Positions 12,477 through 18,042 of a stretch of 20,000 bases of DNA are shown in pieces (positions within the stretch are counted from its first letter, which is position 1; every line of letters starts with the position of its first letter). The translations under genes were made by a program, and so were the position numbers. Below the pieces are notes generated by a model, which saw nothing but the letters and a program-made list of their open reading frames with translations, was not told the origin of the DNA and made no database searches. Source of the DNA: an uncultured virus (IMG/VR IMGVR_UViG_3300007754_000006) (taxonomy: Duplodnaviria > Heunggongvirae > Uroviricota > Caudoviricetes); IMG/VR virus record IMGVR_UViG_3300007754_000006. One strand, given 5' to 3'.

Positions 12477-12956
12477 TTACCGCGAGCAGAGGACCCTACC
12501 GGACCGAACAGTCTGCGTCCTCGAGGGCTCGATGGCCTGGGCCAGCTGGATGCCGCTCTCGCCCGCGCCGTCGCCGACGAAGATCATGAGAGCGTCCTCG
12601 CCCTCCTGGCGCCTCTCCCACTTCTTCGGACGAGCCTTGGGTAGCCCTACCAGAGGAGGAACCAGATGGCCGTCCTCGTTCCTCTCACGGTCCTCTACGC
12701 GAACGAGGTAGCCCCGCTCGAACACCACGACCACGTTGATCAGGAAATCACAGGAATCGCAGCAGTAGACGCCAAGGTCCTTGAGATACGGGGCGGGGGG
12801 AAGTCCTGGGGCCAGAGAGCCCAAAGGGATCCTCCGGGCCTCGGGTGTGTAGTTCCCGATGAAGAACTTGAACTGGACCTCCGCTCCGTCAGGGGGATGC
12901 GCTGCCCCGCACTCTGGGCAGTCCATCTTCACGTAGGTGGAATCTACCAAACCCAT
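12477..12956 (-). CDS. Zinc-ribbon hypothetical protein
   Basis: CPEC and CDSC pairs; GGAG RBS. Confidence 0.75.
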   Translation of the reverse strand: MGLVDSTYVKMDCPECGAAHPPDGAEVQFKFFIGNYTPEARRIPLGSLAPGLPPAPYLKDLGVYCCDSCDFLINVVVVFERGYLVRVEDRERNEDGHLVPPLVGLPKARPKKWERRQEGEDALMIFVGDGAGESGIQLAQAIEPSRTQTVRSGRVLCSR

Positions 12957-12977: not shown

Positions 12978-13040
12978 GCCGCTCTACAACGGTCCCGTCT
13001 CCTAATGCTCGATTCTTGGAGACGGGACCGTTGGAGCGGC
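12978..13040. repeat. Long inverted repeat (16-bp perfect stem plus 7 bp)
   Basis: CAACGGTCCCGTCTCC (12987-13002) pairs with GGAGACGGGACCGTTG (13018-13033), flanked by GCCGCTC/GAGCGGC. Confidence 0.9.
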
Positions 13041-13051
13041 TTGTGAGAGGG

Positions 13052-13193
13052 TTCCACAACCGGGCGAGTTGGTCAGCGAGGTTACGGCTTGCGCCGGCAC
13101 TCGGATTTGAACCGAGGACATTCCGCTTACGAGGCAGATGATCTATCCAACTGATCTATGCTTGTAGGCTGTACCAGGGGCTCGGTTGTGGAA
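13052..13193 (-). ncRNA. tRNA-Thr(CGU)-like core (13092-13165) with a broken acceptor stem, enclosed by the conserved module
   Basis: Intact D arm (GATC/GATC), anticodon arm TCTGC CT CGT AA GCGGA and T arm CTCGG TTCAAAT CCGAG. Acceptor ACAAGCA/TGCCGGC has 3 mismatches and no CCA. Ends pair TTCCACAACCGAGC/GCCCGGTTGTGGAA. Confidence 0.8.
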
Positions 13194-13198
13194 AATCG

Positions 13199-13429
13199 TC
13201 AGGCTTCGATGACCCAGGGATTCCCGGAGCTTCCTGCTCCGACGGACTCGACCTGGTAGACACCGTTGACATCCCGCGCCTGGTAGTGGGCCTTGCGGAA
13301 CGTGATCCAGAGCCACGCACGCTTCAGCCAGTGGAGCTCTTCCCACCGTTGGCCGCGCACCTCGATCTTGTCGCCGGCCTGGAGGGAAGTTCCGTCTACG
13401 GTATCGGGGATGTCTTCGGAGATGATCAT
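13199..13429 (-). CDS. Hypothetical protein
   Basis: ATG at 13429 after AAGG; 76 aa. Confidence 0.6.
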   Translation of the reverse strand: MIISEDIPDTVDGTSLQAGDKIEVRGQRWEELHWLKRAWLWITFRKAHYQARDVNGVYQVESVGAGSSGNPWVIEA

Positions 13430-13502
13430 TTGACCTTTGGGGTTCCGATTCCCGTTACCGGGTTCACATCTCAATAGCTACGGATTCCGTGGAAGGAAAG
13501 GT

Positions 13503-14222
13503 CTACCTTCTGGTAATGATCGCCACCAAAGCCCCTACAGGGAAGGCCAAAGTGAACAGGATATGTATGTGGAACGCGGCTACCGCAGTGACGGTAGCTA
13601 AGACTCCGATTGCCCCCCAAGACTTGTGATCGGAACCCAGGGTACTGAGGAAGGACAGCTCCAGGAGGTTCGAGTGGGTCATTACAGCACCCGCCGCTCC
13701 CATGAACACGTACAGGGGGAACTCTGACCGAGGACCCTTGTTGCTTCTGCTGAGGCTCTTCGTGATTAGGGTTGCGTCGACCAGAATGAGGGGAATCGTC
13801 ACCAGAACTCCCAGAGAGGCCACCGGGGGGAGGAGAGTCACCGTAGGGACCGCGACCCCCAAGATGAAGAGCTTCCCCCACTCCCCATTCAGAGCCATAA
13901 AGAGAGCCTCTTTTGCCATGGCCAAGGCCATACTTGCCAGGACAGGGATTGAGACCCCTGTGATCAGGACAGCGGCTCCCGGGGGGATGAACATGAATAT
14001 GAAGAAGACAGGAGTGAGGAAAACCAGAGCCACGCCTACGATGAGAACGTGGTGTACTTCTACTTCGTGGTTCTCTACCGCCATGAGCAGACCTACTGCG
14101 GTCGCCCCCATCCACCACAAGGACCCAAGGAACATGAAGATTCCCAGAGACCAGAAGGGGAACTCCAGAGGGGAGAACTCAACCCAAGCTCGCGCGAGAG
14201 CAATCAGGAGTTCCATTCCCAC
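13503..14222 (-). CDS. Polytopic membrane protein
   Basis: Many hydrophobic segments; GGAGG RBS. Confidence 0.75.
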   Translation of the reverse strand: MGMELLIALARAWVEFSPLEFPFWSLGIFMFLGSLWWMGATAVGLLMAVENHEVEVHHVLIVGVALVFLTPVFFIFMFIPPGAAVLITGVSIPVLASMALAMAKEALFMALNGEWGKLFILGVAVPTVTLLPPVASLGVLVTIPLILVDATLITKSLSRSNKGPRSEFPLYVFMGAAGAVMTHSNLLELSFLSTLGSDHKSWGAIGVLATVTAVAAFHIHILFTLAFPVGALVAIITRR

Positions 14223-14244
14223 CTCCGCTGCCTGTTACCTCTCC

Positions 14245-14279
14245 GAAAACGACGAAGCCCCGCTCGGAGGCGGGGCTTC
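14245..14279 (-). terminator. Probable intrinsic terminator of the RNA cluster
   Basis: GAAGCCCCGC CTCCGA GCGGGGCTTC (10-bp stem) followed by GTCGTTTTC, 8 nt after the last CCA. Confidence 0.7.
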
Positions 14280-14287
14280 AAAGTAGA

Positions 14288-14432
14288 TGGCGGGGAAGAG
14301 AGGAGTCGAACCTCTAAGCATGTAGGCTGGTGTCGGGGGCTGGCCTGGACAGGCCAGCGAGGGACTCAGCGAGAAGAGACTTTCGTCCCGGATTAATAGT
14401 CCGGTGGCAGATCCACACTGCCATTCTTCCCC
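14288..14432 (-). ncRNA. 145-nt tRNA-like RNA, anticodon ATT, 6-bp D stem, 72-nt variable region
   Basis: GGGGAAG/CTTCCCC-G-CCA; TGGCAG/CTGCCA; CCGGA CT ATT AA TCCGG; AGAGG TTCGACT CCTCT; insert at 14316-14387. Confidence 0.88.
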
Positions 14433-14520
14433 AGGGGGCGCTCGTCTCTCCGAGCCGTCACGTCTTTTGCTCTCCTTGAAGTGGGAGCAGGGAAGTACGA
14501 CGTTCCCCGGCCAGCCCCCT
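14433..14520 (-). ncRNA. manA-motif-like structured RNA
   Basis: Closing stem AGGGGGC/GCCCCCT, GCCGG, ACGTC/GACGT pseudoknot, CCACTT and GTGACGGCTCGGAGAGACGAGC. The manA resemblance is from memory, not from a covariance-model search. Confidence 0.55.
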
Positions 14521-14685
14521 AATCCACGCTACTGAGTTCGTGGGTAGTCGGGTGGGGCTTCACCTTGAGGGTCCGCTTCTCCGGCGAAACGCGCGGAGCG
14601 GGACAAGAGGACTCAGCCTCTCTTATCTCCCGAAGGAGACGTAGGGTTTGGACGTGCGAGTGGGGGAGCGAGAAACAACGCCTGT

Positions 14686-14761
14686 TGGCGCAAAAAACGG
14701 GAATCGAACCCGCGACATTTTGGGTGTGAACCAAATGCTCTTCCAACTGAGCTATTTTCGC
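14686..14761 (-). tRNA. tRNA-Val(CAC), flanked by the conserved module (full unit 14648-14795)
   Basis: GCGAAAA TA GCTC AGTTGGAA GAGC A TTTGG TT CAC AC CCAAA ATGTC GCGGG TTCGATT CCCGT TTTTTGC G CCA; 76 nt. Confidence 0.88.
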
Positions 14762-14957
14762 AGTGCTTGTAGGCTCCGTCCGGAGGCGCGTCCAAGAAGA
14801 AGGAGAGCACAGGGTTCGATACCTGCTGTTTGCTCACACCCCGAAGGGTGGACCCCCATCGCGCCGAGGGTGGGCACTCTCCATAGTCCCACCAGGTGCT
14901 CCGTGGCGGGTTCAACCATTGAGGAACGAACCGGCTGGAGCTACCTGGGGGATTATA

Positions 14958-15105
14958 TGGTGGGGAAGGAAGGACTCGAACCTTCAAGCGTGTAGGCTGA
15001 TGCCGGAGCTACCTGGGTTGATTCAGATAGCGAGTGGCGCAGCGAGAAGAGTCTTGCGACCCGGTTCCCAAAACCGGTGGCGGATCCATACCGCCATTCT
15101 TCCCC
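14958..15105 (-). ncRNA. 148-nt tRNA-like RNA, anticodon TGG (Pro), 6-bp D stem, 75-nt variable region
   Basis: GGGGAAG/CTTCCCC-A-CCA; TGGCGG/CCGCCA; CCGGT TT TGG GA ACCGG; GAAGG TTCGAGT CCTTC; insert at 14986-15060. Confidence 0.88.
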
Positions 15106-16056: not shown

Positions 16057-16781
16057 AGCCCCCTCCGATGTAGATCGAGGAATCCAGGATGGGGGGTCGC
16101 CATGTTCCGGACTCGAGAAGCCAGGGCTTCGACGGCGCTTCGCCGGGACTCCGGGGTTCCCTTGTCATCATCCCACGGAACATCCAGTATGGCCACCCCC
16201 CGCTTGCTCAGGACTCCGACCATGTGGTCGATCTCCCGCTCCAGTCCCTTGAGATACTCGAGGTCGATGGCCTGTTCGCACTTCCGGCCGGTCTCGAGCT
16301 CCATCCGTCGTCGGATCCGCTCGTTGCAGATCTCCGGGCGGGTCAGGATCCGCAAGCAGATGGTAGGCACCTTCACGAAAGCAGTCATGATGTCGTAGAG
16401 GTCTGCGTAGGAAGCGAACTCCCGCTCTTCCATGAGCCCCATCTGCAGCTGGAGGTGTGCGAAGGCTGTGTCTCCATAGAAGCTGCGGTCCAGGACTGCG
16501 TGACCCAAGCCTTGCATCACGAAGCTCTGGGCGTGGAGATGCATCCGGAACCGGGCCGTGAGCTGATGGGTCTGCAGGGTGTACGCCCATCGAGCGGGAT
16601 CCTCGTAGTAGTCTGCCAGGTACGGGTTCCCCCCTCCCTGGTCAGTCCCTCCCTTCTCGTCCGGCTCGAAGAGGGTCAGAGTGGTGGGGCCGAGCGCCTC
16701 CCCAAGTTCGCGTGCTAACGTGGTCTTCCCTGAGCCAATCAGACCCTCGACGATCACGACCTTGTTTTGGGAGTGCTGCAT
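16053..16781 (-). CDS. Deoxynucleoside kinase
   Basis: VEGLIGSGKTT P-loop, FEP, YEDPARWAY, LDRSFYGD, ERIRRR....GRKCE, LEYLKGL. Confidence 0.93.
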   Translation of the reverse strand: MQHSQNKVVIVEGLIGSGKTTLARELGEALGPTTLTLFEPDEKGGTDQGGGNPYLADYYEDPARWAYTLQTHQLTARFRMHLHAQSFVMQGLGHAVLDRSFYGDTAFAHLQLQMGLMEEREFASYADLYDIMTAFVKVPTICLRILTRPEICNERIRRRMELETGRKCEQAIDLEYLKGLEREIDHMVGVLSKRGVAILDVPWDDDKGTPESRRSAVEALASRVRNMATPHPGFLDLHRRGL

Positions 16782-18042
16782 GCTGTGGTTCCTTCTTCCG
16801 GACTTCGGGGTGTGGGATCTTGTTGCGGAGACAATACCTGCGAAGACGGTGCGCCAGTAGTCTTCGGTTCTCTTCGGTTGGGTCCATCCCCTTCTTGGTA
16901 CATACCTCAGCCCAACTCAGCCCCTGGCTACGGAGGGTCCACAGATCAGAGGCGTCCATCCGACCGTAGTCGTAGTGGGACCGGGCGCTCCATCCTCTCT
17001 TCTTCCATGCTGTGTATAGGGCGCTGGTGACAACCCCGAACTCAGCCGCGAGGTCCTCGGTCTTCTCCCCTTCCAAGCGTCGTCGCCAGGTATCTGCAAC
17101 ATCCTTGGGGGTCAGGATACCTTGGATACGGGGAATGTCAGTGATCAGGCCTTGGGCTCCCCATTGAGCACGGAGAGCATTGGGCGACACACCGAACTCG
17201 GCAGCCAAGTCACAGGTCTTCTCCCCTGCCTCTCTCCGGCGCCGGGATTCCTTGAGCTCCTTCATGGTCCATTGGCGACCCGGCGTGCGATTGTCTGGTC
17301 TCTTCCCGAGTAGGCGCTTCCAGGCATGGAGGAGTGCTCCAGAACTGGTTCCAAGTTCGGCCGCCAGACTCGCGGAGCTCTCCCCCTCTTGGTATCTGTC
17401 CCAAGTGGTCTGAGCCTCCTCCATGGTCCATCTCCGCTGGCCTCCCGTCTGCTTTCCCAAGTAGCGGAGCCAGGCACTGCGGAGGCTCTCGGGAGACACT
17501 CCAAGCTCCCGAGCCATATCGGAGCAGGCCTCTCCGTTCTCCCAGCGGGCCCAAGTGGTCTCGCATATCTCCAGGGACCAGGAGTACTGGTTATCTGGGC
17601 TCTTCCCCAGGTGGTACTTCCACGCAGAGCGCATGCTCTTCTGACAGACCCCGAGATCCCGCGCGATATGGCTGGACTTCTCCCCGGACACATACCGATC
17701 CCAGGTCTCCCGGGCGAGCTTCTTGGTCCAGCTGGACCACTTGATGGTGTTCTTTCCAAGGACCCGTTTCCAGGCCCTGCGGAGGGAATCAGGTGTCTCT
17801 CCGATCTCGGATGCCAACTCTGCGGGGCTCTCCCCCTTTTCGTGACGCTTCCAGAGCTCCAGACACCTTTCCTTGTTCCAGAACTTCTTGGGAAGCCCCC
17901 CGAACTCCTTCCTCCACCAGTAGTAGAGGGTCGTCACCTTCATGCCGGCTTCTCCCGCCAGCTCTTTGGTTGATTCTCGAGCTTCCCGGCGCCGATAGAG
18001 ATCCTGTAGGAACTCTCGGCTGGGCCTTGGTTTTTTGGCCAA
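16642..18042 (-). CDS. Tandem helix-turn-helix repeat protein (7-8 repeats of about 50 aa)
   Basis: Repeats W.......W.R...GE....LA.ELG.S..SLR.AW...LGK; TTG start after GGGGAG; C-terminal tail overlaps the dNK gene. Confidence 0.85.
   Translation of the reverse strand: MAKKPRPSREFLQDLYRRREARESTKELAGEAGMKVTTLYYWWRKEFGGLPKKFWNKERCLELWKRHEKGESPAELASEIGETPDSLRRAWKRVLGKNTIKWSSWTKKLARETWDRYVSGEKSSHIARDLGVCQKSMRSAWKYHLGKSPDNQYSWSLEICETTWARWENGEACSDMARELGVSPESLRSAWLRYLGKQTGGQRRWTMEEAQTTWDRYQEGESSASLAAELGTSSGALLHAWKRLLGKRPDNRTPGRQWTMKELKESRRRREAGEKTCDLAAEFGVSPNALRAQWGAQGLITDIPRIQGILTPKDVADTWRRRLEGEKTEDLAAEFGVVTSALYTAWKKRGWSARSHYDYGRMDASDLWTLRSQGLSWAEVCTKKGMDPTEENRRLLAHRLRRYCLRNKIPHPEVRKKEPQHAALPKQGRDRRGSDWLREDHVSTRTWGGARPHHSDPLRAGREGRD

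Follow-up and report, generated by a model that had tools for sequence, protein, structure and literature searches.

A covarying RNA module found inside and around the tRNA genes of large marine phages closes the acceptor end of a tRNA-Thr(CGT)-like RNA

The window considered here is a stretch of 20,000 nucleotides (nt) from an uncultured virus (IMG/VR record IMGVR_UViG_3300007754_000006; Caudoviricetes), the minus strand of which carries, at 13052-13193, a tRNA-Thr(CGT)-like unit (hereafter the Thr unit) whose acceptor end is closed by a structured module of approximately 60 nt. The same module lies inside many phage tRNA genes and, opened at one of its helices (H), wraps whole tRNAs such as the tRNA-Val of this window. 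What is found is therefore a conserved, covarying module outside Rfam that recurs in the tRNA genes of large marine phages, turns inside out, and in three phages caps tRNA bodies lacking a 5' acceptor strand. The Thr unit may be understood as a conserved "capped" tRNA-like RNA and the module as a cut-out or processing signal, intron-like inside tRNAs and a release cassette around RNAs; we regard the chances of this reading as about even. The Thr unit and its immediate surroundings are made up of the following features.

13052-13193, minus strand: complete Thr unit, 142 nt
13180-13193, minus strand: closing helix H, 5' arm, 14 nt, pairing with 13052-13065 with one A-C mismatch
13168-13176, minus strand: helix Pa, 3' strand (TGGT-A-CAGC, with a bulged A), paired with 13070-13077 in the minimum-energy fold
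13160-13171, minus strand: motif U (CAGCCTACAAGC), one of four copies in the window
13092-13165, minus strand: tRNA-Thr(CGT)-like body with intact D, anticodon, and T arms, four of seven acceptor pairs, and no CCA
13085-13096, minus strand: hairpin P0 (CGGC-GCAA-GCCG), which ties up the 3' acceptor strand in the minimum-energy fold
13066-13080, minus strand: motif Dn, consisting of CTC, the 5' strand of Pa (GCTGACCA), and ACTC; repeat family D4
13052-13065, minus strand: closing helix H, 3' arm, the partner of 13180-13193
12978-13040, minus strand: large hairpin with a stem of about 23 bp (inverted repeats I2 and I19), located downstream, between the Thr unit and the start codon at 12956

The body of the Thr unit is read as a tRNA, and not as a pseudogene, by ARAGORN, which calls tRNA-Thr(cgt) at 13091-13165(-), and by the Rfam tRNA family (RF00005), which matches 13092-13165(-) with 46.1 bits (gathering score 29) and leaves acceptor pairs 1, 3, and 4 non-standard. 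The D, anticodon, and T arms and the conserved loop bases of a canonical tRNA are all present in the RF00005 match; a 7-bp acceptor stem and a free 3' end are not, there being no CCA and a predicted GNRA hairpin on the 3' strand. On the minus strand, 5' ACAAGCA faces 3' TGCCGGC, and GCA/TGC pairs contiguously together with an isolated C2-G71. The GCA is supplied by the last bases of motif U and the next A, which substitute for the absent 5' acceptor strand. An original prediction, made from the letters of the window, had described the intact arms with their CGT anticodon, GCA/TGC as the only contiguous acceptor pairing, the GNRA hairpin where CCA should be, and the 14-bp terminal helix with its A-C mismatch, and each of these was recovered here, by ARAGORN and Rfam, by folding, or by repeat analysis. 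Its conclusion that the unit is a closed-acceptor tRNA-like RNA rather than a recent wreck also holds, in that the design is conserved in relatives, and to judge from the sequence it is very unlikely that the Thr unit can be charged.

The 142-nt unit folds with a minimum energy of -53.0 kcal/mol, compared with -37.1 +/- 3.6 kcal/mol for shuffled sequences (z -4.36; none of 200 shuffles as good). In this fold, helix H (14 nt, 93% complementary, inverted repeat I9) is joined by an inner helix, 13176-13168 with 13077-13070, the 3' strand of which is the equivalent of helix 1, a covarying helix, in the covariance model R1 described below. The 14-bp helix by itself is within chance expectation for 20 kb, since three distinct inverted repeats of its quality (arms 20-150 nt apart) occur in the window and shuffled sequences (n=20) give a mean of 2.8 window-hits (range 0-10); its significance comes from its position and its conservation. 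The analysis worked from G001, an IMG/VR record of 56.5 kb (CheckV completeness 31%) that is near-identical to the window, and among the 21 tRNA or tRNA-like loci of G001 the leader-trailer duplex is strongest for the Thr unit (-32.5 kcal/mol) and second strongest for tRNA-Val (-27.7 kcal/mol). Other module-bearing IMG/VR records are G002 (288 kb, 79% complete), G003 (115 kb), and G004 (10 kb), and all four are partial (6-79% complete by CheckV). The large hairpin at 12978-13040 lies in a 241-nt region with a fold z of -7.34, and a strong hairpin likewise follows the G002 counterpart of the Thr unit. A separately encoded 5' acceptor strand, as in a split tRNA, was also sought: GCCGGCA occurs once on the tRNA strand, within an open reading frame (ORF) and at chance frequency.

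The module of about 60 nt is composed of motif U, hairpin P0, motif Dn, the bulged helix Pa, which forms between Dn and U, and helix H. It is found in two orders: inside a tRNA it runs P0, Dn, H hairpin, U, and around a tRNA it runs H 5' arm, U, tRNA, P0, Dn, H 3' arm. Besides the Thr unit, three units of the window carry it.

14648-14795, minus strand: wrapped tRNA-Val(CAC) unit, consisting of H 5' arm, U (GAGCCTACAAGC), full tRNA with CCA (14761-14686), P0, Dn, and H 3' arm
14958-15095, minus strand: unit A, tRNA-Pro(TGG)-like, with a complete module inserted at 14988-15067; 62.2 bits with R1
14288-14432, minus strand: unit B, tRNA-Asn(ATT)-like, with a complete module at 14318-14394 between the anticodon stem and the T stem; 73.2 bits with R1

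The flanks of the Thr and Val units are homologous. Upstream, both read AGCCTACAAGC, after which the Val unit continues with ACT and its acceptor strand and the Thr unit passes directly to tRNA position 8; downstream, both have a small hairpin, CTCGCT-N6-CTCGC, and the 3' arm of a closing helix whose sequence differs between the units. Pa of the Val unit is GCTC/GAGC instead of GCTG/CAGC, a compensatory change. P0-equivalent small hairpins, mostly with GNRA loops, occupy the same place in most module copies, the class II units being without an obvious one. Repeat analysis of 13050-15100 gives four copies of motif U (family D1) and three of motif Dn, and matches to a Dn regular expression fall only on the tRNA strand and adjoin modules. 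The Thr unit has Pa, H, and both motifs, the parts by which R1 defines the module, in the wrapped order; linear R1 finds only its U-side half (9.5 bits, E 0.5), as expected of a permuted copy, and likewise gives a half-match to the Val unit (19.7 bits at 14765-14832). The original prediction had described the GNRA hairpin and closing helix as features of one rearranged tRNA-like RNA; the rearrangement is not private to this unit, both being parts of a module that is repeated in neighboring tRNA genes.

Units A and B are missed by both ARAGORN and Rfam. Each has a 7-bp acceptor stem and D, anticodon, and T arms, ends in CCA (A) or GCCA (B), and is interrupted by approximately 75 nt between the anticodon stem and the T stem; a terminator-like site (14280-14253) follows unit B. 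When modules were removed in silico, ARAGORN tRNA calls were regained in 10 of 11 units, with 204 of 578 trial boundaries giving Pro(tgg) for unit A and 220 of 578 giving Asn(att) for unit B, which leaves the borders unfixed because ARAGORN is tolerant.

Several further observations concern these units. A sequence from the H arm of unit A, CCCAGGTAGCTCC (15002-15014(-)), recurs about 60 nt downstream of the unit, in window 14890-14947(-), in an 11-bp hairpin that has one bulge and encloses a T-loop-like sequence; this hairpin may be a remnant of another unit. In the inverted repeat I1 (27 nt, 78% complementary; 14322-14348 with 14506-14532), the H 3' arm and motif U of the unit B module have a complement some 75 nt upstream of the unit, which could provide an alternative pairing or be a relic of a wrapped form. 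The acceptor stem GGGGAAG/CTTCCCC is common to units A and B and to several G002 and metagenome units with anticodons TGG, ATT, ACG, GTT, GAA, and others, and in a few units with TTG or TTT anticodons CTTCTCC is found instead, giving a G3-U70 pair; a shared acceptor stem would be unusual if each unit is charged by a different synthetase. In G001, beyond the window, there are weak tRNA matches (22-26 bits) at three places (48441-48496, 42025-42093, and 46638-46704), one of them covering only model positions 8-63 and so without an acceptor stem, and these may be further non-canonical tRNA-like units.

The covariance model R1 was searched over 521 kb from the four phage records and further metagenome loci and gave 33 matches, 29 of them distinct, in the four records and eight further metagenome loci. 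Full copies number 3, 7, 2, and 3 in G001, G002, G003, and G004, respectively, with one weak half-match in addition in G001. Pattern scans gave matches that were sorted by eye and proved mostly to be due to chance, true copies amounting to 1 of 31, 0 of 2, 4 of 19, 14 of 68, 0 of 48, and 1 of 3. The 14 true copies among 68 are metagenome loci, five of which repeat G002-G004 and one of which (L139) repeats L101; the 48 matches without a true copy come from cellular genomes, searched at one per species for 185,579 bacterial and archaeal species. Most insertions separate the anticodon stem from the T stem or variable arm, and one lies in an anticodon loop, that of a canonical G002 tRNA-Met(CAT) with CCA present; other copies are in canonical tRNA-Phe and tRNA-Leu bodies. 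Inserts measure approximately 50-60 nt from the 5' strand of Pa to motif U, or about 75 nt with the P0 region. An Rfam search with E up to 10 returned two tRNAs and noise and no family for the module, and full-text literature searches found it nowhere described.

Three interrupted tRNA genes merit mention in their own right. L097 549-601 and L111 573-627 are near-identical and differ in the H hairpin alone, which is wholly replaced, H behaving like an exchangeable cassette. In the G002 271782-271863 region (L064), an interrupted tRNA has an 8-nt anticodon loop that ARAGORN reads as a 4-base ggaa after in silico removal of the module; this could be a case of quadruplet decoding or frameshifting, or the tRNA may be a non-working one.

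The hand-checked MAFFT alignment of 22 inserts contains two helices, H and Pa, the latter with four outer pairs (GCTG/CAGC) and three inner pairs over a bulge of 1-2 nt, and between the helices CACTC and CTACAAGC are almost invariant. In this alignment, 89.9% of cells are paired, against 77.4% when shuffled and 33-57% in slid controls, and the covariation score is 0.408 against 0.175; none of 500 shuffles was as high in either respect. Fitting the R1 matches (33, 29 distinct) to the model gives 92.8% paired against 74.5%, two-sided changes at 12 of 13 pairs, and a score of 0.534 against 0.178 (0 of 500 shuffles), values that are biased toward the model's own structure. The frequent U-G pairs of the R1-fitted alignment would be C-A mismatches on the other strand, making the fold specific to the tRNA strand, and the module is therefore considered to act as RNA rather than as duplex DNA. 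This bears on an alternative that we consider improbable, namely that the module is selfish and acts at the level of DNA, for instance as a mobile sequence that forms a hairpin or as a site linked to the neighboring GIY-YIG homing endonucleases, breaking tRNA genes and leaving the Thr unit as a dead by-product. Such an element would suit the repetition of the module and its confinement to phage-like records, and GIY-YIG/NUMOD3 genes adjoin module-bearing tRNAs in all four records. It fits poorly with U-G pairs that permit a fold on one strand only, with the placement of every copy on the tRNA strand (motif U in G002 occurs eight times on that strand and not at all on the opposite one), and with interrupted tRNA halves that are still complementary and foldable. 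The arms of the unit without a 5' strand, moreover, have been kept by compensatory changes across phages with 59-71% protein identity.

That last point derives from an array of four units that is arranged in the same order in G001, G002, and G003 (interrupted tRNA, wrapped complete tRNA, interrupted tRNA, and wrapped tRNA body), upstream of a VWA-domain gene common to the three. G001 and G002 share 71% amino-acid identity in deoxynucleoside kinase and 59% in deoxycytidylate (dCMP) deaminase. Each of the three phages has exactly two wrapped units, and all six have Pa and a helix H, of 7-14 bp and in six different sequences. In the fourth unit, to which the Thr unit corresponds, motif U ends in AAGCA and the D arm follows directly or after 2 nt (AT in G003), such that U abuts tRNA position 8 in both the Thr unit and its G002 counterpart; the 3' strand is TGC and then a hairpin with a GCAA, TTCG, or 6-nt loop. 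In all three phages the stems of the D and T arms are preserved, compensatory changes having altered their sequences, and the anticodons differ (CGT, CAT, and GAA). The fourth unit is thus a tRNA body without its own 5' acceptor strand that has been kept by compensatory changes in three phages.

Simple recent decay, meaning the loss of about 9 nt from the 5' end of a tRNA-Thr gene beside a flanking helix due to chance, can be set against this array. The Thr junction can indeed be derived from that of the tRNA-Val unit by deleting 9 nt, and a lone 14-bp inverted repeat is not rare in 20 kb. The original prediction had named relatives with a normal GCCGGCA acceptor strand and no flanking helix as the mark of such decay, whereas the relative at the same array position in G002 keeps the junction, the sequestering hairpin, and a flanking helix of other sequence. 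The 3'-strand hairpin and helix H are found in all three phages in differing sequences, with body arms intact, and covariation supports the module to which the flanks are homologous. The relatives might still be recent transfers of one dead copy, but sequence differences in every arm argue against it. As arms maintained by compensatory change across 59-71% identity are not to be expected of a dead gene, we reject recent decay, which is left with only a very small probability.

In the process that we propose, the module would be cut at both bases, by a nuclease or by itself. Within a tRNA it would then be a small intron whose exons would be rejoined by an RtcB-type ligase, and where it is wrapped around an RNA its cutting would release the enclosed RNA. 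Whether released by cutting or left uncut, the RNA of the Thr unit would be stable, tRNA-shaped, and incapable of being aminoacylated, and proteins that recognize the elbow and anticodon of tRNAs might be decoyed by it or have it as a ligand. In its most specific form, which we advance only tentatively and consider less likely than not to be correct in full, this would be a new processing element of about 60 nt in bacterial viruses, a self-cleaving RNA or the substrate of a phage or host nuclease-ligase pair, acting as a mini-intron and as an inside-out cassette that excises, and perhaps circularizes, the enclosed RNA; the last unit of the array would yield an end-less or 5'-truncated, unchargeable tRNA-shaped RNA, a candidate decoy for anticodon nucleases or other tRNA-targeting host defenses. 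Excision is favored because some host tRNAs are canonical, one of them with the insert in its anticodon loop, because GIY-YIG genes alternate with interrupted tRNAs, and because a single motif is used in two topologies, as in the archaeal bulge-helix-bulge (BHB) motif.

The main rival to excision is that the module is never removed and forms a functional rod on a tRNA-shaped handle, the units, the Thr unit among them, being chimeric, Y-RNA-like noncoding RNAs that recruit a protein via the conserved loops of the rod. The single-stranded motifs at the internal loop and rod base are strongly conserved while the helices covary, and searches of the four partial records for splicing enzymes were negative. 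The spacing from motif U to the next tRNA part is variable, which a retained rod would accommodate. Wrapped units also resemble Y RNAs, which have paired ends in a bulged stem beside a tRNA-like domain (PMC4201824). A rod retained in the RNA is nonetheless hard to reconcile with the copies in canonical tRNA-Phe and tRNA-Leu and, above all, in the anticodon loop of the canonical tRNA-Met(CAT), where a retained insert of 75 nt should abolish decoding. The free swapping of the H hairpin sequence between two otherwise near-identical copies and the negative search of the four partial records for Ro60/TROVE also count against retention, which we judge to be a serious but rather unlikely alternative.

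A number of points weigh against the reading preferred here. None of the runs containing the stretch is an RNA run, and one metatranscriptome gave nothing alignable to it. A module-free allele was sought for one interrupted tRNA family and none was found, the DNA contigs likewise containing no module-less variant, and for want of such an allele the module boundaries are unfixed. Between motif U and the tRNA part that follows it there are anywhere from about 0 to 10 nt, so that a cut at a fixed distance would give non-uniform junctions. Several host tRNA bodies are unusual, having D stems of 5-6 bp, AA at positions 8-9, or an 8-nt anticodon loop, and are therefore possibly non-working tRNAs. 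The two interrupted units of the G003 array are divergent and were identified by eye, lying below the R1 threshold, and the bias of the R1-fitted alignment belongs here also. Nor did searches of the four partial virus records reveal the expected partners: there was no match to a tRNA-splicing endonuclease (tRNA_int_endo), none to a Thg1-like enzyme that could carry out 5' repair, and no Ro60/TROVE among the matches in G001-G004, and the RtcB search gave only a 43-residue N-terminal fragment in G002 that is not taken as support.

The fragment in question is at G002 239009-239140(-) (L164 1471-2067), where the last 43 residues of a 198-aa ORF match the RtcB N-terminus with 28-30 bits. Nothing else RtcB-like was seen beyond this ORF, which lies about 5 kb from the tRNA array and may represent a ligase gene that is broken, split, or highly divergent. 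A Pfam search of 74 G002 ORFs around the tRNA region recognized no RNA ligase or RNA nuclease. Among the neighbors are GIY-YIG/NUMOD3 (Seg-like) homing endonuclease genes (phrog_314, E 1e-27 to 1e-42), which are present in multiple copies, five of them in the 10-kb G004, and alternate with module-bearing tRNA genes in all four records; such interleaving with interrupted tRNAs is the pattern expected when introns split homing sites.

The use of one motif both inside tRNAs and around RNAs mirrors the archaeal BHB, and it might be supposed that the virus is archaeal and that the module is a BHB intron or processing stem cut by the host's splicing endonuclease. G002 does encode a PTH2-type peptidyl-tRNA hydrolase. 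A strict BHB at plausible junctions was found in 3 of 12 units, with one candidate each, and shuffled sequences gave 0.19-0.55 per unit, so there is no excess; the tRNA_int_endo search of the four partial records, moreover, was negative. The L7/L12 C-terminal domain, acyl carrier protein, Seg-like endonucleases, and CCA encoded in many tRNA genes are bacterial-type features, and an archaeal-type system is accordingly seen as highly improbable.

Other identities were considered and rejected. A group I intron does not agree with inserts of about 50-60 nt (about 75 nt with P0) and no Rfam match, and a permuted tRNA gene does not agree with an Rfam alignment of the Thr body in natural order over model positions 1-71. 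Hammerhead, hairpin, twister, and hepatitis delta virus (HDV)-like ribozymes were rejected by eye only, as were an 11-nt GNRA receptor, a CRISPR repeat with an 8-nt handle, a retron msr, domain V of a group II intron, and a phage promoter.

The window is part of a phage-like contig, and the phages that carry the module are large marine phages. The DNA runs containing the stretch are labeled marine or seawater metagenome, and cultured phages are distant relatives only, BLAST of the region against them giving matches at tRNA level only. Genes of the window encode adenylate kinase, ThiF, orotidine monophosphate (OMP) decarboxylase, deoxynucleoside kinase, dCMP deaminase, acyl carrier protein, and HNH and helix-turn-helix (HTH) proteins, and G001 has about 20 tRNA genes, all on one strand. 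From position 12528 to its end, the window is identical to G001 (window 12528 corresponds to G001 15667). At window 12528-12572, within ORF 12477-12956(-), G001 has an extra 343 bp, which is not a multiple of three, and 11 mismatches lie farther left; contigs from three DNA runs end at this site or miss 40 bases there, and the site either varies or is prone to repeats, or else marks an assembly breakpoint. The same ORF is a shortened counterpart of the VWA-domain gene of 630-650 aa in G002 and G003. Adjoining the deoxynucleoside kinase gene, window 16642-18042(-) encodes a 466-aa protein with many HTH repeats that matches several Pfam HTH families and, among PHROGs, HNH-associated DNA-binding regions.

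Bacteria and their viruses are not known to possess introns other than self-splicing group I (and group II) introns, and short tRNA introns and leader-trailer processing stems count as a specialty of archaea and eukaryotes. Should the module prove to be excised, it would represent a new RNA processing pathway in the bacterial world and would explain phage tRNAs that are missed by scanners, including two genes in this window; if it stays in the RNA, tRNA-scaffolded noncoding RNAs of phages would constitute a new family.

Among known systems, the archaeal BHB motif, defined by two 3-nt bulges separated by a 4-bp helix at exon-intron borders, occurs in tRNA introns, which lie at many different positions, and also in the open processing stems that surround rRNAs and permuted tRNAs. 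It shares with the module the use of one small motif that is closed inside tRNA genes at several positions and open as a leader-trailer around an enclosed RNA. The module differs in being without BHB geometry and without a splicing endonuclease among the genes found, in having motifs U and Dn, which have no BHB counterpart, and in residing in a tailed-phage-like genome with bacterial-type genes. Circularly permuted tRNA genes, in which the 3' portion of the tRNA precedes the 5' portion in the DNA, occur in the red alga Cyanidioschyzon and in Thermofilum. They too have a leader-trailer processing helix around the tRNA sequence, but here the tRNA keeps its natural order, and what has been opened so as to surround it is the module. 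Group I introns, which have a core of about 200 nt or more with helices P1-P9, occur in bacterial and phage tRNA genes, and introns lacking an ORF may be accompanied by a free-standing homing endonuclease in what is termed collaborative homing. Intervening sequences in tRNA genes with homing endonuclease genes alongside are common to both cases, whereas the inserts formed by the module are far smaller, have no Rfam group I match, and lie mostly outside the anticodon loop.

The original prediction had likened the Thr unit to YrlA. YrlA is encoded beside Ro60, its order is T arm, acceptor stem-loop, and D arm, a Ro-binding stem replaces the anticodon arm, and RNAs of the YrlA type are reported in phages too (PMC4201824). 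An unchargeable, closed-acceptor tRNA-like domain joined to a stem of the RNA ends is shared between YrlA or Y RNAs and the Thr unit (PMC4201824). The Thr unit differs in its natural D-anticodon-T order, in keeping a 7-nt anticodon loop, in having no Ro60/TROVE gene nearby or elsewhere in the four partial records, and in matching only tRNA, apart from noise, in Rfam; on these grounds it is not taken to be a YrlA relative. Lak megaphages have short, highly conserved, "enigmatic" tRNA introns whose splicing mechanism is not known, in genomes of about 26% GC analyzed with tRNAscan in eukaryote mode (PMC6784885). These resemble the module as short conserved inserts of unexplained splicing in phage tRNA genes; in the part of the account considered, nothing is said of a common module, a wrapped form, or a unit that lacks its 5' strand, the comparison being one of descriptions (PMC6784885). 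By analogy, then, the present case comes closest to the archaeal BHB, in its two topologies, and to YrlA, in its closed acceptor. The module belongs with intervening and capping RNA elements on tRNAs, and there is a real chance that it represents a new processing system.

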